From Patescibacteria group bacterium (lineage in GTDB: Bacteria; Patescibacteriota; Microgenomatia; UBA1400; Chisholmbacteraceae), in NCBI GenBank assembly GCA_022564195.1, contig JADFLW010000006.1, positions 2,474-66,473 of the forward strand: a stretch of 64,000 bases of DNA, written 5' to 3'. The position numbers and the translations under genes are program-made. The notes beneath the pieces were generated by a model that made no database searches, was not told the origin of the DNA, and worked only from the letters and a program-made list of their open reading frames with translations. Positions 2,777 to 17,556 of the stretch are shown one piece after another (positions within the stretch are counted from its first letter, which is position 1; each line of letters opens with the position of its first letter).

Positions 2777-3454
2777 TTAATCTTCTAATTCAGATAATTG
2801 GGAGGATAGATCTCTCTCCTCCTGCTCGAGTTCTTGAGCTTCGCTATTGCCCGAGATAAACTCCTCCCATAGTATTCCTCTCCTGCTACGTATCTCTTCC
2901 AAGCGCTTCGTGATCTCTTCTCTTTGCTTTCTTCTTTGTATATACCTCTCTCCCTCTTCCTGGAGAGCTTTCTCTCTAGTCTGGATGCCCAACTTAATCC
3001 TTGGGTGCTTTCTTATCCTGTCCAAAAACTCTTTTTGCTCTGGAGATTCTTCTACCTCTGTAAACCCTTTAAAAGGTGCTTCAGGGCTATCATCTGGGGG
3101 CTCCGCATATCCTTCCCATTCTCTAAATTCTTTCCTAAAAGTATGGGCACTATTTATCAAATCACTGACATGTTCGTTATAGCTATCCCCAAAAAAAGTC
3201 GCTATGTGACGGCCAAGTAGATGGTCAGTTACACTAAACCCGACTTCATGGTTTTCGTCTTCGGGCAAATAACGAATGCCCATGGCAAACTCGTTATATA
3301 CCACCATGGTCCTTCTCAAGTGTGGTAAATTTCCTTGATATATTTCCCAGTGGTCAGCAATGTGTTGTAGGAAGGAGTCAGCCATTGAGATTACCTCTCC
3401 CCTTGTTAGGGCCTGGCTTTCACCTATTGTTTCTGGAGCTGCCATATCATTCAA
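2777..3454 (-). CDS. hypothetical protein (globular N-terminal half, E/R/K-rich coiled-coil C-terminal half)
   Basis: 225-aa ORF directly upstream of, and co-oriented with, the KAP NTPase. No recognisable motif. The 240-bp gap to the KAP start suggests a separate promoter. Confidence 0.5.
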   Translation of the reverse strand: MNDMAAPETIGESQALTRGEVISMADSFLQHIADHWEIYQGNLPHLRRTMVVYNEFAMGIRYLPEDENHEVGFSVTDHLLGRHIATFFGDSYNEHVSDLINSAHTFRKEFREWEGYAEPPDDSPEAPFKGFTEVEESPEQKEFLDRIRKHPRIKLGIQTREKALQEEGERYIQRRKQREEITKRLEEIRSRRGILWEEFISGNSEAQELEQEERDLSSQLSELED

Positions 3455-3490
3455 TAATAATATGAATCTCTTACATTATTACGTAGTGCG

Positions 3491-3506
3491 TGGCTCCCCG
3501 GGCTGG
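3491..3506. repeat. 16-nt exact copy of the 3' end of tRNA-Asn (tggctccccgggctgg)
   Basis: Identical to 3850-3865. It lies on the far side of GIY-YIG ORF 3536-3808, an att-like direct-repeat arrangement. Confidence 0.6.
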
Positions 3507-3535
3507 TGTCTTTCGCTAAAGCTACAGAGCACTTA

Positions 3536-3808
3536 TCAGCCCGAAACATCCTTCTTCAAGACTTCAGAATTAACCAATCTTTTATATGTAAACGCTTTTC
3601 CAGATCCGGTTTTAATATAACGCTCAAAATCTTTAGCCAATTTTTTATTTTCAAAAGCACAATACCAAACAAGTTTCCAAGGAATGTAGGGCTTAGTTGC
3701 TTTTGATAGACCTTTATTGTGTTCTTTAGCTCGTTTTACTACGTCTAATGTGTATCCGTAGTAAAAATCTCTCGATTTTGAGCTGTATAGGATGTAAACG
3801 TAATACAT
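3536..3808 (-). CDS. GIY-YIG nuclease family protein (90 aa)
   Basis: YVYILYS...YYGYT...RAKEHN matches the GIY-YIG catalytic-core pattern. Confidence 0.8.
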   Translation of the reverse strand: MYYVYILYSSKSRDFYYGYTLDVVKRAKEHNKGLSKATKPYIPWKLVWYCAFENKKLAKDFERYIKTGSGKAFTYKRLVNSEVLKKDVSG

Positions 3809-3849
3809 TGGCTATGTTATTTTAGCCATTCTGAAGCCTTGGCGAAAGA

Positions 3850-3924
3850 TGGCTCCCCGGGCTGGACTCGAACCAGCAACCTTGAAGTTAACAGCTTCCT
3901 GCTCTACCATTGAGCTACCGGGGA
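3850..3924 (-). tRNA. tRNA-Asn (anticodon GTT)
   Basis: 75-nt cloverleaf folded by hand: acceptor tccccgg/ccgggga, D-arm gctc-aatggta-gagc, anticodon loop ctGTTaa, T-arm gctgg-ttcgagt-ccagc, CCA encoded. Confidence 0.8.
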
Positions 3925-4160
3925 TCGTTTATTCTATTTCTAAGGAATCTCCGACCAAATCCAGTTCTGAAATATTTTTCTCTCTTCCTCGCGGCTTCCA
4001 TGCTCAGGCAGGCTTCATAATAAACAAGTTTAATCGGCAATCTTTTCTTTGTAGATTTTACTTGACCCTTTTTATGTTTGTTTATCCACTTTATCAAGTC
4101 TGCTGTACTACCAATATAGAGCTTTTTGTCTGCACACAACAAAACATAAGTATATTTCAT
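3915..4160 (-). CDS. GIY-YIG nuclease family protein (81 aa)
   Basis: YVLLCADKKLYIGSTADL...KHKKG motif. Its last codons and TAG stop overlap tRNA-Asn positions 1-10. Confidence 0.75.
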   Translation of the reverse strand: MKYTYVLLCADKKLYIGSTADLIKWINKHKKGQVKSTKKRLPIKLVYYEACLSMEAARKREKYFRTGFGRRFLRNRINDPR

Positions 4161-4227
4161 CCGGGATTGAGCTACCCGTCCGCCATCGCTAGCCGCTCAA
4201 GCGTTGCGGGCGTGGCCGGGGATTATC
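4161..4227 (-). repeat. degenerate partial copy of the tRNA-Asn 5' end (acceptor/D-arm) split by a 39-nt GC-rich insert
   Basis: attgagctacc (4166-4176) equals 3909-3919; ccggggat (4216-4223) equals 3918-3925. It sits immediately 5' of the GIY-YIG start codon. Confidence 0.45.
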
Positions 4228-4299
4228 AAAGAACGCCCAAATTATACCACCTCTGGTTCTATCATGCATGCCAGCTGCCCATAAGGTACAATTACCATC

Positions 4300-4932
4300 A
4301 TGCTTAAAGCAGTCATATTTGACATCGACGGCGTGCTACTGGACTCACAGCAAGCGAATATCAAGTTTTTCCAGGACTTATTAGAAAAGGCTGAATATAA
4401 GCGTCCTTCAGAAAAAGAGGCTTTGCAAGTTCTTCATCTGACAATGTGGGATGCAATAAAGGCGTTGACGAAAGAGCGCTCAAAACCGAAGCTCAAAGTG
4501 GTCTGGGAGATGGGGCATCATGTGAAGTATCCCTTGGAACTTCTCAAAATGCCCAAAGACGCTAAAAGTGTGGTTAAAAAGCTAGGCAAAGATTACAAAT
4601 TAGCAATAGTGACCAGTCGGATCGAAAAAGGCGTGGAGGATTTCTTCCAAATCTCAAATCTGAGAAGGCAATTCAGGGTAGTAGTCTCTTTTGAAGACTA
4701 TACAAACCCCAAGCCTCACCCTGAGCCTTTGCTCGTTGCTCTGAAGAGATTAAAAATGAAACCAAAAGAAGTCGTATACATAGGCGATACTGAATCTGAT
4801 ATAAAATCAGCCAAAGCGGCTGGTATCAAAATTATCATGTATTCAAAGAGTGTTCACAAATCCGCCGACATCAATGTAGCCTCTTTTAAAGAAATCCCAG
4901 GGGCTATAGCAAAAATAAACAAGAAGAGATAG
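4300..4932 (+). CDS. HAD-superfamily hydrolase (phosphatase-like)
   Basis: N-terminal DxDGVLLD motif (VIFDIDGVLLDS) and C-terminal IGDTESDI motif. Confidence 0.8.
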   Translation: MLKAVIFDIDGVLLDSQQANIKFFQDLLEKAEYKRPSEKEALQVLHLTMWDAIKALTKERSKPKLKVVWEMGHHVKYPLELLKMPKDAKSVVKKLGKDYKLAIVTSRIEKGVEDFFQISNLRRQFRVVVSFEDYTNPKPHPEPLLVALKRLKMKPKEVVYIGDTESDIKSAKAAGIKIIMYSKSVHKSADINVASFKEIPGAIAKINKKR

Positions 4933-5043
4933 TTCTTTAACAGTTCAAGTAAGTGAGTGCCCGCGGAGCACAACTCCTCGGCTTCAATTGTTACTAGCCC
5001 GACAGAACGCCAGACCTCTTCTCTTTGTATAATCGCTCTTAAG

Positions 5044-5541
5044 ATGAAATACGATGTTGGAATCATCTTAAGCCACTTCCATACCTGGTTCGGGTTTACC
5101 AGCAGACAAAAGAAGCGGATGGACAAGGGCATCGAACTGCTAAGAAAGGGGAAGGTGCGGTTCTTGATGACAACCGGAGGAAAGGGTGTGTTTAATCCCA
5201 CCGCACGGCCAGTGGGAGAATGGGCAAAAGACTATCTTGTCAAAAATGGAGTCAGTAAACGCAAAATCCTCGTCGAAGACAAATCGACAAGCACTGAACA
5301 AAACGCCAAGTTTGCACTAGAGATAATGAGGAAAAACAGCCTTCACTCTGCAATAGTCATCACCTCCGCTGACCATATGAGCCGGGCGCAAAGAATTTTC
5401 AAGAACGTCTTTCCCAAGAACTATAATCTGGATTTCGTTGTCTCAGACTACTTCTCCGGATTCTGGAGTGTCTGGGATTTCTTTTGGCACGCTGGCGGGT
5501 GGGTAAAATATGCAGTTGATTCGCTCCAAAGGAAGCGGTAA
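5044..5541 (+). CDS. DUF218 / YdcF-ElyC-SanA family protein
   Basis: FLMTTGGKG...STSTEQNA...VITSADHMSRAQ pattern. The ATG at 5044 is preferred over the longer track ORF start. Confidence 0.6.
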   Translation: MKYDVGIILSHFHTWFGFTSRQKKRMDKGIELLRKGKVRFLMTTGGKGVFNPTARPVGEWAKDYLVKNGVSKRKILVEDKSTSTEQNAKFALEIMRKNSLHSAIVITSADHMSRAQRIFKNVFPKNYNLDFVVSDYFSGFWSVWDFFWHAGGWVKYAVDSLQRKR

Positions 5542-5642
5542 GATCCTCCGCTTTCAAAGACGCAAAAATCCGCGAAAACATGCGAAATCGGTGGAAACAA
5601 GCGCTTTACGAGTTGTCTGAATTGGTTTGATAGAATCAAGCT

Positions 5643-6095
5643 ATGAAGAAAAATAAAAAACTTTTGCCCCCAATGTATCTTTTGATATACCTCGTCGCTG
5701 CGGCAGCGCTGCACGTTACGTTCCCGATTACCCAAATCGTTCATCCTCCGTATACCTCCATTGGTATTCCCCTCCTTCTTGTGGGGGGTAGTATCAATCT
5801 CTGGGTAAAGAACATCTTTGACAGAAGACAAACAACCATCATTCCATTTAATAAGTCTTCAGCGCTCATCACGGAAGGTCCCTTCAGTTTCAGTAGAAAT
5901 CCTATGTACTTAGGTATTGTCCTTCTCCTGCTGGGAGTGGCCTTTCTCTTAGGAAGCCTGGCCGCTTTTCTAGCGCCAATTGCGATGTTTATCACCCTCC
6001 AGAGAAAATTCATTCCCTACGAAGAGGGGATGCTTGAAGAGACATTTGGAAAGAAGTACAGAGTTTATAAAAACCGCGTGCGCCGATGGTTGTGA
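5643..6095 (+). CDS. isoprenylcysteine carboxyl methyltransferase (ICMT)/phospholipid methyltransferase family membrane protein
   Basis: Multi-TM protein with the ITEGPFSFSRNPMYLG motif. Confidence 0.7.
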   Translation: MKKNKKLLPPMYLLIYLVAAAALHVTFPITQIVHPPYTSIGIPLLLVGGSINLWVKNIFDRRQTTIIPFNKSSALITEGPFSFSRNPMYLGIVLLLLGVAFLLGSLAAFLAPIAMFITLQRKFIPYEEGMLEETFGKKYRVYKNRVRRWL

Positions 6096-6108
6096 ACAGC
6101 GAGGGCAA

Positions 6109-6755
6109 GTGGAGATCATAAAAAACTACTACGACATTGCCATATTACCTCCGCCGCCGATTGAAGACTACTTATTGCATTGAGCGAAGAGATCAACAAG
6201 CGCTTCGGCTCCAGGTTCGTTTTAGGCGAAAACCAAAACCTCCCGCACATCACGCTTTTACACGCAGCCTTTCCTAAAAGAAATGTAAGGATACTCAAAA
6301 ACAGATTATCCGCTCTTTCCAAAAAGACCCCACCCTTCCAAGCACACGTCAAAGGCTTCCTCGCCTATCCGCAAGCAGGCTTTATGACTGTAGAGGTGGC
6401 TCCGAAAAGCAAATTCGTCACACTCCACAGAGAGGTTAGCACGCTAACAAAAGACTTGATCGACAGAAGCTTTGATTATCGAGCAGTTTGGGATTATCCG
6501 AAATTGCCCAAGAAAGCGAAAAAATACGTTGACAAGTATGCCACCCCTGTTGTCAAGGAATATTTCATCCCCCATATGACCTTGAGTTTGCTAAAGGACA
6601 AGGGAAAACTAGCAGAGGTGGAGGCGACGATGAGCGTAGAGCATCACCGATTCAGGGCAGAGACGCTCGCCCTCTGCACCCTTGCAGAACACCACACTTG
6701 CCAAGAGGTTGTCTTTAGCATCCCTCTAGGAAGGGTTGACAAAAAAGACCCATAA
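6109..6755 (+). pseudogene. 2'-5' RNA ligase-like 2H phosphoesterase (LigT family) with an apparent +1 frameshift near 6178-6183
   Basis: HxT motifs (PHITLLH and PHMTLSL). The conserved N-terminus (EIIKNYYDIAILPPPPIEDYLLH, from GTG 6109) is in another frame and ends at TGA 6181-6183. The main ORF (TTG 6180) is closed just upstream by TGA 6162-6164. Confidence 0.5.
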
Positions 6756-6820
6756 GCTTAGACTCCAACCACTGCCCTATAGAACAAGTTATACTTCCCT
6801 TGGAAAAACGGAACACTGAT

Positions 6821-7453
6821 ATGCAGGAAACGCCGCAACAACCTGCTTCAGGGGGGCAAACCTTTGATGCCCAACCCCCCACCATCAAGAAAAAATCCAA
6901 AAAGAAGTGGCTAGTGATACTCCCGATCCTCATTGTCGTCTTGGCCGCAGGGGCCTTTTTCTTCTCTCGATCCCCGCAAGAAGAGCCGGAAGAACAAGAG
7001 CTGACGCCTATCGAAAGTGAAGAGAGAGAATCACCAACCCCCACCCCAACCCCCGAACCAGTCGACAAAAGCGAAATATCAATACGAGTCCTCAATGGCA
7101 CTGGCATCGCCAGGGAAGCAGCGTTTCTCAGGGGGAAATTGGAAGAGTTGGGCTACAGCGATATCGAATCAGGAAACGCAAGCGACCAAACCCGTGAAAC
7201 GACAGAAGTCTCCTTCGGATCCACTATCCCTGAGGCGGTGAGGGAGGAAATCCGAAATAAGCTCGAGGAAATCTATACAGAGGTAGAGGTCATCACAGGC
7301 AGAGCCACCGACGCTGATATCCTCGTGACCACCGGTCTCCGACCCGGCCAATCGCTCCCCACACCGACGCCGACCGCAGAACCAACTCCAACGCCGACCG
7401 CAACCGAGTCTGCAACACCGACTCCCGCCCCCACCCCAACATCAACTCCGTAA
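6821..7453 (+). CDS. LytR_C (LytR cell-envelope-related transcriptional attenuator C-terminal) domain protein, membrane anchored, with TPTP linkers
   Basis: Single TM helix, then [25 protein letters not shown], typical of LytR_C. Pro/Thr-rich low-complexity tail. Confidence 0.6.
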
Positions 7454-11541: not shown

Positions 11542-12753
11542 CTAATCCAAATAGTCCTGGAGTTTCTTGCGCCTACTCGGATGTTTAAGTTTCCGAAGCG
11601 CTTTTGCCTCAATCTGTCGAATCCGTTCACGGGTAACTCCAAATCGCGACCCGACTTCCTCAAGCGTCATTGCCCGTTCTCCTGAGAGTCCAAAGCGCAT
11701 CCTCAAGACTTGAGCTTCACGAGGGGAAAGTGCCGCCAACACCTCCTCGATATTGTCTTTCAAAAACCGCTTGCTCGTCGCATCATAGGGGCTGATCTGA
11801 GAGGTATCCTCAATGAAATCACCAAGATAACTATCTTCATCATCACCAATCGGAGTCTCCAGAGAAGTCGTCCGTTGAGAAATCTTCATGATCTCCCGAA
11901 TCTTCTCGGGCAGAAGCTCCATCTCCTCCCCGATTTCCTCAGGCGTCGGCTCACGTCCCAACTCCTGCATGAGCCTGCGTTGAATGCGAATGAGTTTATT
12001 GATGGTTTCCACCATATGCACGGGAATTCTGATGGTCCGTGCCTGATCGGCAATTGCTCGAGTGATGGCCTGGCGGATCCACCAGGTGGCATAGGTGGAA
12101 AACTTGTACCCTTTTCGCCAATCGTATTTTTCAACCGCACGGATCAAACCCTTGTTCCCCTCTTGGATCAAATCCAAGAAACTCATCCCACGACCAATGT
12201 ACCGTTTGGCTATCGAGACCACGAGCCTCAAGTTCGACTGCGTCAATTTCGCCTTTGCTTCCAAATCCGCAACATCCACTTTCTGAGCCAGCTCAATCTC
12301 CTGGTCACGCGTTAAAAGCGGAATCCGTCCGATCTCCTTAAGATACATGCGCACCGGATCGGTAATCGTTTTGTCTTCAAGGGTAGAAAGGACCTCAAGC
12401 TCCTTAGCAAGCTCAGTCGTCGCCTCCTCATCCTCACGCAGCTCCCCTTCGGTAACGCTCTCAAACACATCAATACCAAGCTGAAGCAGCCGGCCGTACA
12501 GATCATCCAATTCCTCAATCCGGAGCTCTGCGTCAGGGAAAATCTCCAAGATCTCCTCCTGGGTAACGAACCCTTGATCCTGACCTTTCTTGATTAAAGG
12601 CTCAATGACCTTCTTTCGCGCATCTGCCCTGCCTACAGGTTTACCCGCCTGCCCGCCTGCCCGCCTGCCGGCGTGGCCCTTTGGCGTGGCCGCACTGGAG
12701 GGCTTCCGAGTTTTCTGTTTTGCTGGTGTTTTTGCTTTCTTTTTCACTGCCAC
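11542..12753 (-). CDS. rpoD: RNA polymerase sigma factor RpoD (sigma-70)
   Basis: Regions 1.2-4 recognisable: [29 protein letters not shown], and C-terminal [28 protein letters not shown]. Confidence 0.95.
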
Positions 12754-15391: not shown

Positions 15392-15481
15392 TGGCGGTGA
15401 GGGTGGGATTCGAACCCACGGTAACCTTGCGGCTACACGGACTTTCCAGATCCGCCGATTAAACCACTCTCGCACCTCACC
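15392..15481 (-). tRNA. tRNA-Ser (anticodon GGA)
   Basis: GGTGAGGTG... anticodon loop ctGGAaa, long variable arm, T-arm gtggg-ttcgaat-cccac, CCA encoded. Very similar to E. coli tRNA-Ser(GGA). Confidence 0.75.
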
Positions 15482-15487
15482 AATCTT

Positions 15488-15533
15488 GACGCTAGACGCT
15501 AGACGCTAGACGCTAGACGCTAGACGCTAGACG
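15488..15533. repeat. heptanucleotide microsatellite (GACGCTA) x 6.6
   Basis: Perfect tandem copies. It overlaps the last six codons (KRLASSV) and stop of the NUDIX gene. Confidence 0.9.
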
Positions 15534-16058
15534 TTTAGCTATTCTATCATGAGCCTGTCGAAGGGCCTCCCTCTCCCCTTCAAACGCCAGCCGCTCCATT
15601 GCCTCTTCATACGGCAACCAAACAGCCTCCTCCATCTCCCAATCATGATCCTTCACATCTCCACTCTCATATTCCATCAGAAAAAAAGACACAACCTTAA
15701 AAACCTTGATCTTGCCTCCCCCTGCTTCTTGATACTTCGCAACTCTTCTCCGCGGCTTCACCTCATCAGATTGTTCGTAATCGTATCCCTCATCCGGCTT
15801 TTTGAGATCCGCCCAATACACATACTGCACTCGGTGAATAGGACGCTCAGACAACAACCCAACTTTCACTCCCATCTCTTCCTCAACCTCCCGCACCGCC
15901 GTCTCAAACCCCCGCTCCCCTTTCTCAATGAGTCCCTTCGGCAACACCCATTTGTGATACCCGCTATGCTTTCCAATTAACCACACCACTTTCCCTCGCT
16001 GGTACTTGTAGACTAGCCCGCCTGCTGAAAATTCTCTTTTGAATGACGATTTGGCCAT
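15513..16058 (-). CDS. NUDIX hydrolase
   Basis: Nudix box GLIEKGERGFETAVREVEEEMGV. Confidence 0.85.
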   Translation of the reverse strand: MAKSSFKREFSAGGLVYKYQRGKVVWLIGKHSGYHKWVLPKGLIEKGERGFETAVREVEEEMGVKVGLLSERPIHRVQYVYWADLKKPDEGYDYEQSDEVKPRRRVAKYQEAGGGKIKVFKVVSFFLMEYESGDVKDHDWEMEEAVWLPYEEAMERLAFEGEREALRQAHDRIAKRLASSV

Positions 16059-16103
16059 AGAAACAGAAAAAGTGTTTACACTGAAAAATCTTTGAGTTTT
16101 TAG

Positions 16104-16175
16104 TGCCTCTGACCAGAATCGAACTGGTATCGCCGGTTCCGGAGACCGGTGCTCTATCCATTAAGCTACAGAGGC
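16104..16175 (-). tRNA. tRNA-Arg (anticodon CCG)
   Basis: Hand-folded 72-nt cloverleaf with anticodon arm ccggt-ctCCGga-accgg and T-loop ttcgatt. Confidence 0.7.
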
Positions 16176-16265
16176 ATAGCCCGTTTTCTCTCTCGGGCGG
16201 ACTGCGTCCCGCCGAAGCTGAGACGAATCTCGCTTGCGCTCGAACGAGCTTCGGCGAAGCGAAGG

Positions 16266-16347
16266 CGGAGGGTAGAGGATTCGAACCCCTGAGCCCTTAC
16301 GGGCCATCGCTTTCGAGGCGATTGCATTACCACTCTGCCAACCCTCC
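16266..16347 (-). tRNA. tRNA-Ser (anticodon CGA)
   Basis: Acceptor ggagggt/accctcc, anticodon arm atcgc-ctCGAaa-gcgat, long variable arm, T-loop ttcgaat. Confidence 0.7.
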
Positions 16348-16430
16348 CAGGTATGAACAATATACAGGCAACAATTACAAGCTACCGAGTTGATGTGAAT
16401 TGTAATCTGTAACCTGTTGTCACCGCGCGG

Positions 16431-16502
16431 TGCTCCCGGCAGGAATCGAACCTGCATCAGAGGATCCGCAATCCCCTATTCTGTCCGTTGAACTACGGGA
16501 GC
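16431..16502 (-). tRNA. tRNA-Arg (anticodon GCG, unusual) - anticodon assignment tentative
   Basis: 72-nt cloverleaf: acceptor gctcccg/cgggagc, anticodon arm gggga-ttGCGga-tcctc, T-arm gcagg-ttcgatt-cctgc. The 3' end reads CCG rather than CCA. Confidence 0.55.
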
Positions 16503-16592
16503 CAGAATTGTGTGTCTATATTTTACCAGCGGTAAGCCAGGCTTGCCAGCCGAGTCCGACTTGGAGGAAGGAAAATCTGAAAACCTTTAAAG

Positions 16593-17282
16593 TTAGGCTG
16601 AGGACTTGCCCGCCGTACTGGAAGGAGAGGCAGGCTCTTTCTCAAGTGGAACCTTCTCGCTCAACCAACGGGCGCTTTTATCCAAAAACGTGGGCTCTGG
16701 CTCTTCGTGAGGTAAACGCTCATTGAAAATCTTCTTGATTTTCCCTTCATCAGCGTTACCCAACATCAGCAGCAACTGTCCAGGAAACAGCATCACAGTC
16801 TGAACAACCACCATTCGTTGTCCATATTTCTCAGAATACCAGTATCGTCGTAGATCTATCCAGCGATACAGCTTGTCGGCACTACGAATACCACGGTTGG
16901 TGAGTTTGTGCTCTGTCTTTTCTGGTGGAATCGCAGCGAAGACATAGGAAACGAAGGCAAACGCGATAACCACCGCAATCAGTAAGAATTCCCTCAAGAA
17001 ACCAAGAATGATGATGACCAAAAACGCGATCGCGGCAATAGTCGTGTAGTAGTCACGATCTCGCTTCTTAAAGGGCCGGACCGGGGCTTTCCATGTCAAA
17101 AGAACCTCTTCCTCACCCACTTCTCGCTCTGGTACTGCCGGAGCGGTTCGCTCACTTGAATCAGCACGCTTGCCCTGCCTGTCCGCCATAGCTTTAGCGT
17201 CGGCGGAAGCTGCGTCGATGGGCTCCTCTACCTTCTTAGCCGCAGCACTAGCTTTTGTCTTTCGCCTCTCCTGAGCAGCCAT
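16593..17282 (-). CDS. hypothetical membrane protein (two TM helices, charged N-terminal tail)
   Basis: ORF with a K/A/E-rich N-terminus and a hydrophobic hairpin AAIAFLVIIILGFL...AVVIAFAFVSYVFAAI. Confidence 0.5.
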   Translation of the reverse strand: MAAQERRKTKASAAAKKVEEPIDAASADAKAMADRQGKRADSSERTAPAVPEREVGEEEVLLTWKAPVRPFKKRDRDYYTTIAAIAFLVIIILGFLREFLLIAVVIAFAFVSYVFAAIPPEKTEHKLTNRGIRSADKLYRWIDLRRYWYSEKYGQRMVVVQTVMLFPGQLLLMLGNADEGKIKKIFNERLPHEEPEPTFLDKSARWLSEKVPLEKEPASPSSTAGKSSA

Positions 17283-17345
17283 AAAACCCTTCCTTCAATA
17301 TAACACACGCGTTTACCGCGTGTGAATACAATAAGCGATACGCGG

Positions 17346-17432
17346 CGGAGGCGGTGGGATTCGAACCCACGTGGCCCCGAAGGGCCCGAGTTTAGCAAAC
17401 TCGTGCGATCGGCCAGACTACGCGACGCCTCC
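17346..17432 (-). tRNA. tRNA-Ser (anticodon GCT)
   Basis: Anticodon arm cgagt-ttGCTaa-actcg, long variable arm gggcccttcggggcc, T-arm gtggg-ttcgaat-cccac. Confidence 0.75.
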
Positions 17433-17466
17433 CAGTAACATCATTATATCATCCGCAAATTAAGCT

Positions 17467-17556
17467 TGGCGGCGGGAGAGGGATTCGAACCCCCGTGCCT
17501 CTTTCGAGGCGCATGGTTTTCAAGACCAGCCTGTTTGACCGCTCCAGCATCCCGCC
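17467..17556 (-). tRNA. tRNA-Ser (anticodon TGA)
   Basis: ggcggga... anticodon loop ctTGAaa, long variable arm cgcctcgaaagaggcac, T-loop ttcgaat, CCA encoded. Confidence 0.7.

Follow-up and report, generated by a model that had tools for sequence, protein, structure and literature searches.

Two minimal GIY-YIG nuclease genes at a tRNA-Asn gene of a Patescibacteria bacterium: candidate selfish mini-elements that keep their target intact

In a 64,000-nucleotide (nt) stretch of DNA from an uncultured Patescibacteria bacterium (contig JADFLW010000006.1; the whole 64-kb stretch is called the window below), a gene for asparagine transfer RNA (tRNA-Asn) lies between two genes for very small GIY-YIG nucleases. 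We conclude, with a probability of roughly 0.8, that this tRNA gene holds two unrelated selfish mini-element insertions, each little more than a nuclease gene. The type-1 element, which carries open reading frame 1 (ORF1), would have entered the tRNA gene at its extreme 3' end, behind nt 74-76, where a duplication of nt 61-74(76) would keep the tRNA intact. The type-2 element, an almost naked ORF (ORF2), would have entered the D-loop behind nt 16, along with a new copy of nt -1 to 16; the outcome would be a complete downstream tRNA and an original 5' end left behind on the native promoter, split by a palindrome. Comparison with related loci, which is a comparison of sequences, established the anatomy of both elements, their recurrence at many tRNA species and in many lineages, the existence of empty and half-occupied sites, and the occurrence of tandem and decayed copies.

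The arrangement had been proposed by an earlier, sequence-only reading of the window. ARAGORN, Rfam and Pfam agreed with it, with small corrections of coordinates, and gave the following features:

3850-3924, minus strand: functional tRNA-Asn(GUU), called by ARAGORN (GTT) and matched by the Rfam tRNA model at 67.5 bits
3536-3808, minus strand: ORF1, type-1 minimal GIY-YIG nuclease gene, 90 amino acids (Pfam PF01541, E 2.8e-15, 56.8 bits)
3915-4160, minus strand: ORF2, type-2 minimal GIY-YIG nuclease gene, 81 amino acids (Pfam PF01541, E 1.2e-12, 48.4 bits)
3507-3849: whole type-1 element, 343 bp, bounded by repeats of tRNA nt 61-76
3850-3865, minus strand: copy 1 of the direct repeat, tRNA nt 61-76 including CCA (CCAGCCCGGGGAGCCA)
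3491-3506, minus strand: copy 2 of the direct repeat, a displaced duplicate of tRNA nt 61-76, exact 16-nt match to 3850-3865
4216-4223, minus strand: fragment 'a', original tRNA 5' end, nt -1 to 7 (ATCCCCGG), exact copy of 3918-3925
4166-4176, minus strand: fragment 'b', original tRNA nt 6-16 (6/8-16) (GGTAGCTCAAT), exact 11-nt repeat of 3909-3919
4177-4215, no strand assigned: GC-rich palindromic module 'H', 39 nt, splitting the left-behind tRNA fragment, a conserved feature of the type-2 family
4241-4249, minus strand: extended -10 box TGGTATAAT of the putative native tRNA-Asn promoter, lying 18 nt before +1 of the original tRNA

Both ORFs score above the curated cut-off of PF01541 (22.6 bits). 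They share 37% identity and are the sole GIY-YIG ORFs of the window. NCBI records contain each of the two proteins at 100% identity under the name of an uncultured Patescibacteria bacterium. The 16-mer that bounds the type-1 element has only its two sites in the window, even at up to two mismatches, and none of 100 shuffled sequences held two sites; the exact copy of the tRNA 3' end beyond ORF1 thus stands as first read. At the other end of the tRNA, the stop codon of ORF2, a TAG at 3917-3915 (minus strand), coincides with tRNA nt 8-10, as had also been read. Fragments 'a' and 'b' are contiguous in tRNA numbering and lie 39 nt apart (4177-4215). Taken alone, the 11-mer of fragment 'b' is barely beyond chance expectation in 1.1 kb; this doubt was removed because the order and spacing of both pieces are correct and because the layout recurs in dozens of unrelated loci. 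The upstream copy of the 5' end had been called degenerate, with a GC-rich insert. Pieces and insert were both recovered, and the insert is the conserved palindrome H of the type-2 family and no sign of decay.

Relatives of the locus were located through the neighbouring HAD hydrolase gene. The HAD region of one of them, locus L166, is 90.6% identical to that of the window at the nucleotide level and its tRNA-Asn is 98.7% identical, and this tRNA has neither a GIY-YIG gene nor a tRNA fragment on either side. It is preceded by TGGTATAAT and 18 nt, and a perfect terminator hairpin with a T-run follows directly. Since the distance from the box to the tRNA 5' end is the same for the L166 tRNA and for window fragment 4216-4223, this fragment is identified as the original 5' end of the tRNA, still on its native promoter; the promoter function of the box at 4241-4249 is itself predicted from the sequence. 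Comparison with L166 also indicated which parts of the working tRNA are old and new: nt 1-16 are the duplicated copy and nt 17-76 the original. Relative to the empty site, the DNA added by the type-2 insertion runs from 4165 to 3909, a total of 257 bp that includes the new tRNA nt -1 to 16. Over 78 nt the tRNAs of the window and of L166 differ only by an extra T in L166 (nt 17, D-loop), which lies exactly at the boundary of the type-2 duplication (window 3909). The indel may have been left by the insertion, or it may be a change that shields the occupied allele.

A second relative, L170, carries an ORF2 homologue that is 79% identical, the closest readable one, with the same promoter box, the same order of fragment 'a', palindrome and fragment 'b' at the same tRNA positions, and a stop codon inside the tRNA. 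At the 3' end its tRNA is in the native state, lacking both a type-1 unit and a 3' repeat. Three states of the site were therefore seen, empty in L166, type 2 only in L170 and both elements in the window, and consequently the two insertions were independent. This is what the sequence-only reading had supposed, namely two separate selfish insertions that keep the tRNA by partial duplication, and the 160 related loci analysed, together with L166 and L170, bear it out. In these comparisons the tRNA fragments occurred only together with the genes, the opposite of fragments without GIY-YIG genes, the observation that would have counted against that reading. Three other contigs encode exactly the ORF1 protein; their locus is 100% identical and uninformative on strain polymorphism.

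We then considered each family separately. ORF1 has hundreds of homologues at 60-86% identity, and the type-1 sample comprised 80 homologous loci from one-per-species genomes. In 54 of the 72 testable loci, those with sufficient upstream sequence, the start codon is preceded at a distance of 0-150 nt, mostly 25-70 nt, by the end of a same-strand tRNA gene; for equivalent windows elsewhere in the same loci the background was 1.2%. The tRNAs concerned are those for Gln, Asn, Gly, Ser, Trp, Glu, Tyr and Met. At least 12 nt of the tRNA are repeated exactly within about 60 nt after the type-1 stop codon in 40 of 55 loci, compared with 2 for the control upstream of the tRNA and 1 for the reverse complement. 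With 6 nt of 3' flank added and a cut-off of 11 nt, 45 loci and the window qualify. The repeat always begins at tRNA nt 61, the first base past the T-loop, and runs to nt 73-76. Its lengths of 14, 15 and 16 nt occurred 24, 7 and 2 times, where a fixed 14 nt with chance extension predicts 24.8, 6.2 and 2.1. Because the length distribution fits 14 nt plus chance matches, we regard the repeat as a fixed 14-bp target-site duplication.

Between the duplication and the gene lie inverted ends, with the consensus TCYTTCGCYAARGCTWCRGA, that reach to 0-2 nt from the duplication. In the window they are as follows:

3830-3849, minus strand: left terminal inverted repeat (TCTTTCGCCAAGGCTTCAGA), zero mismatches to the consensus
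3507-3528, plus strand: right terminal inverted repeat (3509-3528) with a 2-nt terminus (3507-3508), zero mismatches to the consensus
3549-3568, plus strand: inner, weaker inverted-repeat copy (inverted repeat I2) within the ORF1 3' end, differing from the consensus at three positions

By chance, 64 kb would hold only 0.11 zero-mismatch matches to the arm consensus. In the window the two arms pair at 17 Watson-Crick and 2 G:T of 22 positions. Over 46 loci, the oppositions between arms were 617 Watson-Crick, 104 G:T and 96 A:C; since G:T is about as frequent as A:C, the arms are DNA-level terminal inverted repeats and not an RNA stem, and a helix of the arms enclosing the ORF in RNA was rejected on these counts. 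Type-1 units are 328-524 bp long. As judged from these features, the anatomy of type 1 is that of a miniature transposon, with inverted-repeat ends, a fixed target duplication and a precise position at the tRNA 3' end. The 16-nt repeat had been called att-like; a 14-bp target-site duplication beside inverted repeats, with no integrase, describes it better than an attachment site.

Three further observations concern the ends and targets of type 1. The inner copy at 3549-3568 sits 40 nt inside the right arm, and the same position holds one in L161-L165; it overlaps the codons of the conserved C-terminal SE(V/A)LKKD, and the conservation of the protein tail may be due in part to a site at the DNA level. 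In L036 (about 2870-3000), four tandem copies of a unit of about 27 nt (gaattgcatgccacattcccaagttta) replace the usual left arm upstream of the type-1 gene. G52/C62 was tried as a target signature and discarded: it is near-universal in targets, yet most non-targets have it too.

The type-2 family was sampled at 80 metagenome loci. In 37 of the 80, a tRNA on the same strand begins between -15 and +100 nt after the type-2 stop codon, usually at 0-10 nt (background 0.8%). The tRNAs are those for Lys, Asn, Leu, Pro, Val, Ile, Gly, Glu, Asp, Thr, Arg, Gln and Met. The type-2 start is preceded by a partial tRNA copy that begins at about nt -3 to +1, ends at nt 14-45 and is broken by one, sometimes two, GC-rich imperfect palindromes of 35-55 nt with the outer stem CCCGCCCGC ... 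GCGGGCGGG. Such a palindrome H is present in most type-2 loci, where the tRNA pieces that flank it are contiguous in tRNA numbering, and the order a-H-b is common to the window, L170 and about 30 other loci. A tRNA-Asn lineage of type 2 (the window, L170, L098, L109 and L141) shares both this layout and the overlapping stop codon. The duplications vary from 15 to 48 nt, the longer ones hold more copies of H, and they take in 1-4 nt of the 5' leader. Type-2 elements have no terminal inverted repeats. In a mirror subgroup at tRNA-Val and tRNA-Pro, the type-2 gene lies downstream of the tRNA, and beyond the gene comes a piece of the tRNA 3' part (about nt 42-76) split by H.

H was seen in both orientations, 17 times in one and 24 in the other, and almost only within the non-functional tRNA fragment beside a type-2 gene. 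The copy in the window is slightly degenerate and folds weakly (z -0.94), and no other copy was found in the 64-kb window. It is possible that H interrupts long direct repeats, which would otherwise lead to loss of the element, or that it is a cis site for a structure-specific nuclease. H resembles REP (repetitive extragenic palindromic) and MITE-like (miniature inverted-repeat) elements, the palindromic elements of Rickettsia and the GC clusters of yeast mitochondria. With such small palindromic repeats it shares a short length, GC-richness, undeleted flanks, both orientations and, at some loci, several copies; unlike them, it is nearly confined to tRNA fragments next to type-2 genes. H can also stand elsewhere than in an upstream fragment: in L152 (2745-2793) its place is between the type-2 stop codon and tRNA +1. 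L106 (305-660) shows, in this order, a tRNA-Pro, a 3' fragment with a palindrome, a type-2 ORF and a second palindrome-bearing copy of the same fragment, so that the two fragments enclose the ORF. The only other match in the window to a loose GC-palindrome pattern is a short run of GGCAGGCGG-type repeats (12645-12675), which is not a copy of H.

Several features of the two families are signs of selfish spread and decay. Together the families occupy more than 15 tRNA species, and tRNAs flanked on both sides like that of the window were found in L046, L062, L071, L037, L121 and L160. L049 is a tandem array in which a tRNA-Trp is followed by repeat, unit, repeat, unit and repeat at a spacing of 459 bp; L002, L074 and L007 carry partial second type-1 copies, and L152, which has an internal deletion, retains the left arm, a stretch of 25 codons and a portion of the distal repeat. 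Two genomes contributed two type-1 loci each; one of these genomes has its copies at two different tRNAs, tRNA-Gln (L002) and tRNA-Asn (L052). Ten loci (L012, L018, L021, L028, L035, L039, L048, L066, L069 and L161) have no intact tRNA, and a full tRNA-like 3' segment follows the right arm. The last of these is the locus of the closest ORF1 homologue (P0003, 86% identical); its context is different and only a tRNA remnant lies upstream. About 1.5 kb from this type-1 copy, L161 also has a Y1 transposase gene of the IS200/IS605 type (2922-3545). Scans of IMG/VR found no type-1 relative and one type-2 relative, and the GIY-YIG proteins had no phage-family match in PHROGs and no defence-family match in PADLOC.

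In a search of the family profile of the encoded proteins against the PDB, BH0048 (1zg2, E 2.6e-11) and EF2693 (1ywl, 2.1e-9) came first, followed by SLX1. The AlphaFold model of ORF1 (mean predicted local distance difference test score, pLDDT, 87.6) is closest in fold to UPF0213 and Slx1: in Foldseek, 1zg2 was the top match and, with Slx1 chains, took ranks 1-9, and I-TevI took ranks 10-12 at E>0.2. By sequence and by predicted fold, the ORF1- and ORF2-type proteins are thus placed in the Slx1/UPF0213 clade and not in that of the I-TevI homing endonucleases. The label homing-endonuclease-like, given on first reading, fits the lifestyle and not the family membership. Slx1 is a structure-specific nuclease, and by analogy such an enzyme would suit a target made of inverted repeats, palindromes and self-complementary tRNA-gene DNA. 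The minimal stand-alone domain of the YhbQ-like UPF0213 proteins BH0048 and EF2693 is the best match in sequence and fold; UPF0213 proteins are treated as repair enzymes, unlike those described here, which have a conserved C-terminal tail and a mobile-element context. This tail, G(S/F)G(K/R)xF..(K/N)R(L/I), is present in both families and lies outside the PDB alignment.

ORF1 has the family-invariant residues Y5, Y16, G18, H30 and E62 as well as R26 (at least 90% conserved), so that all catalytic positions are intact. ORF2 has W at Arg25, where R occurs in at least 90% of the family (alignment A2). We take this position, from established knowledge, to be the catalytic Arg of GIY-YIG enzymes, and the substitution suggests that the ORF2 protein of the window is probably catalytically dead. 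The family comprises 5138 clusters at 50% identity (E<=1e-10). NCBIfam has no specific model for it, and its members carry no annotation beyond "GIY-YIG nuclease family protein" or "excinuclease ABC C subunit domain".

How might such elements move and be expressed? We propose that the encoded nuclease would start insertion by cutting tRNA-gene DNA. For type 1, a transposon-like staggered cut, 14 bp apart at tRNA 60/61 and 74/75, is the mechanism that we somewhat favour, because of the fixed 14-bp duplication, the precise inverted-repeat ends and the 79%-identical units found on different tRNAs; that type 1 is instead copied by break repair seems to us unlikely. For type 2, break repair with the flanking tRNA pieces as homology would be the likelier route, since its duplication ranges from 15 to 48 nt and it lacks inverted-repeat ends. 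Both genes would be transcribed from the tRNA promoter, with the type-2 ORF between the native promoter and the tRNA and the type-1 unit between the tRNA and the position of L166's terminator, and RNase P and RNase Z would release the tRNA from the joint transcript. No terminator-like hairpin was found inside the type-1 units of 44 elements, nor on the minus strand of 3300-4400 in the window. A terminator follows the distal repeat in only 7 of 44 type-1 loci, which lends little support to insertion between tRNA and terminator. It is a tentative suggestion that type 1 represents an unrecognised class of prokaryotic DNA transposons, in which a Slx1-type GIY-YIG nuclease of about 90 amino acids, the only protein, would serve as a 'transposase' specific for structure or sequence: it would recognise the T-arm and acceptor end of tRNA genes, make cuts 14 bp apart and join in a unit with inverted-repeat boundaries. 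Type 2 and its palindrome would then be a second, mechanistically different solution reached by the same nuclease clade.

Several points weigh against the proposal of two selfish insertions. Mobility and nuclease activity, that is, DNA cutting, recognition of the tRNA gene and binding of the inverted repeats, are what we infer from sequence patterns, and the argument for co-transcription is the absence of terminators and promoters. We know of no transposase that is a GIY-YIG protein. The proposal does not account for the role of the palindrome H, and the duplication regenerates the presumed target, so that the immunity of occupied sites is not obvious. About one quarter of type-1 copies have no intact tRNA upstream. 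Some non-Patescibacteria labels on contigs of metagenome-assembled genomes may be binning errors. Finally, in L001, L019, L021 and L024 the distal repeat is unlike the local tRNA and equals the end of the same isoacceptor in other organisms (L001 compared with L078), as one would expect of break-repair copying or of old insertions more than of a newly made target duplication. In a check for donors of these four, the tRNA of the nearest elements matched the distal repeat in part (L021 with L020; L019 with L010, L024 and L034), which is not decisive.

These mismatching repeats are also an argument for pure homing, in which double-strand-break repair would be the only mechanism, as for free-standing homing endonuclease genes: the nuclease would cut an empty tRNA gene, the occupied copy would be the template, the tRNA pieces would be portable homology arms usable in any genome and the duplications would be inherited. 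The type-1 repeat ends exactly where tRNA homology between genomes would end; the nearest neighbours among type-1 elements share the amino-acid type of their tRNA in 23 of 46 cases, compared with about 10 by chance; and the variable length of the type-2 duplication and the persistence of the a-H-b layout with its overlapping stop codon through the tRNA-Asn lineage agree with inheritance. We nevertheless consider pure homing doubtful. Type-1 units that are 79% identical occupy different tRNAs, each with its own exact repeat, and the duplication was therefore made anew when the target changed. A fixed length of 14 bp and precise inverted-repeat ends are needless for homing and typical of transposition, and 14 nt would be a very short right homology arm. 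Because of the mismatching distal repeats and the shared tRNA type of nearest neighbours, the data suggest either that break-repair copying with the tRNA as homology contributes besides the staggered cut, or that the mismatching insertions are old.

Two other explanations fare much worse. That the genes are ordinary host genes, for repair or RNA-processing enzymes co-transcribed with tRNAs, and the repeats relics of old tRNA duplications or integrase islands, draws on a 2006 survey of the GIY-YIG superfamily, which proposed vertical inheritance and a repair function for the prokaryotic Slx1-like proteins, assigned the selfish members to another lineage and reported a Slx1-like domain fused to a TrmH-like tRNA methyltransferase (PMC1564403). 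It is very improbable in view of the difference in presence and absence between close relatives at the same tRNA, the use of so many tRNA species, and the combination of inverted repeats, fixed-length duplication, tandem arrays, truncated copies and the apparently dead catalytic site of ORF2; moreover, the 343 bp between the repeats hold no integrase, and the phage and defence families gave no match. We give even less credence to an element that acts at the RNA level, an intron-like or retro-mobile RNA whose arms form a helix and whose tRNA ends serve as sites of processing or priming. The junctions do lie near the mature 5' and 3' ends of the tRNA, and the element is probably co-transcribed with it, but G:U does not exceed A:C in the arms, H is found in either orientation, Rfam (E<=10, 3300-4400) found the tRNA only, and a reverse transcriptase is absent. 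The tRNA needs no splicing to be intact, and the leader nucleotides included in type-2 repeats place the boundary elsewhere than at the RNase P site.

Full-text searches, whose scope left out most subscription journals, found no literature on GIY-YIG mini-elements that flank tRNA genes; the nearest items concern GIY-YIG genes in non-intron ribosomal RNA insertions of bacteria of the candidate phyla radiation (PMC11270868) and the GIY-YIG superfamily as surveyed in 2006. Among known systems, the finding belongs with selfish nuclease-gene elements at conserved genes. T4-like phages carry free-standing GIY-YIG homing endonuclease genes (Seg), one of which, SegB, lies in a tRNA gene cluster (PMC2330249). 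As in the elements described here, these are selfish GIY-YIG genes beside tRNA genes, variable among relatives and presumed to spread by cutting alleles that lack the gene. The Seg proteins, however, exceed 200 amino acids, have extra DNA-binding domains and belong to the I-TevI/UvrC lineage, whereas ours are bare Slx1/UPF0213-type domains of 80-90 amino acids; and Seg genes are phage-borne and have neither inverted-repeat ends nor target duplication, whereas ours are chromosomal and almost absent from IMG/VR. The occupied and empty sites among close relatives (L166, L170 and the window) are also seen with free-standing homing genes in general, from which type 1 differs by its duplication and inverted repeats and type 2 by its long duplications.

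Type 1 shares inverted repeats, a target duplication and targeting of the tRNA 3' end with casposons. The casposon duplication is 14-15 bp, close to the 14 bp of type 1, and casposons are several kb to about 20 kb in size. They encode Cas1 and a family-B DNA polymerase, in contrast to a single GIY-YIG gene in 330-480 bp here, with no Cas1, polymerase or known transposase. Casposons are Cas1-dependent, self-synthesising transposons, and their insertion sites overlap the last nucleotides of tRNA genes, which remain undamaged (PMC4046053). Integrase islands and prophages likewise have, on the two sides of the insert, a direct repeat of the tRNA 3' part from near the T-loop, and the tRNA gene is regenerated; unlike them, the type-1 element has no tyrosine or serine recombinase, measures 343 bp, has inverted-repeat ends and uses many tRNAs with repeats derived from each target. 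To our knowledge, the mirror-image insertion at the 5' end, as in type 2, is rare for integrases. Inverted repeats at the ends and a fixed 14-bp duplication link type 1, and type 1 only, to classical DNA transposons and insertion sequences, yet it has no DDE, HUH, serine, tyrosine or Cas1 transposase and its 343 bp leave no room for one. Group I and II introns and other RNA families differ from these elements, which have no Rfam match besides the tRNA and no G:U excess.

If our conclusion is correct, these would be among the smallest autonomous mobile elements known, with about 250-350 bp and one protein of 80-90 amino acids. They would use tRNA genes as a landing site and as an expression platform, at either end and without inactivating them. 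A large family of thousands of 50%-identity clusters, now annotated as nucleases, has a context that points to a selfish lifestyle; should the type-1 element indeed prove to be a new class of transposon, many prokaryotic 'Slx1/UPF0213 repair nucleases' would be mobile-element genes. The elements would also account for the stray tRNA fragments and broken contigs that lie beside tRNA genes of candidate-phyla-radiation bacteria. For enzymologists and tool builders, so small a nuclease, with a target that seems precise and tied to structure, could be of interest.

The surroundings of the locus gave some minor observations. A cluster of six tRNA genes in the window (15392-17556, minus strand; four Ser and two Arg) has no GIY-YIG gene, inverted-repeat motif or palindrome. 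In L166 (167-1250), a gene for an EamA-family transporter separates the tRNA-Asn promoter from the HAD hydrolase gene; the window (4228-4300) has no such gene there, and the HAD gene starts 50 nt past the -10 box of the tRNA promoter, a gene-sized indel relative to L166. Another HAD homologue, 64% identical, stands in L167 beside an eRF1-like gene with a LAGLIDADG-domain intein (4622-7225); this contig is probably archaeal and unrelated to the finding. A 225-amino-acid ORF at 2777-3454 (minus strand), whose start lies 37 nt beyond the distal repeat, encodes many charged residues and had no match in Pfam, PADLOC or PHROG. It lies on the same strand as the tRNA with no terminator in between, and it may be read through from the tRNA promoter.

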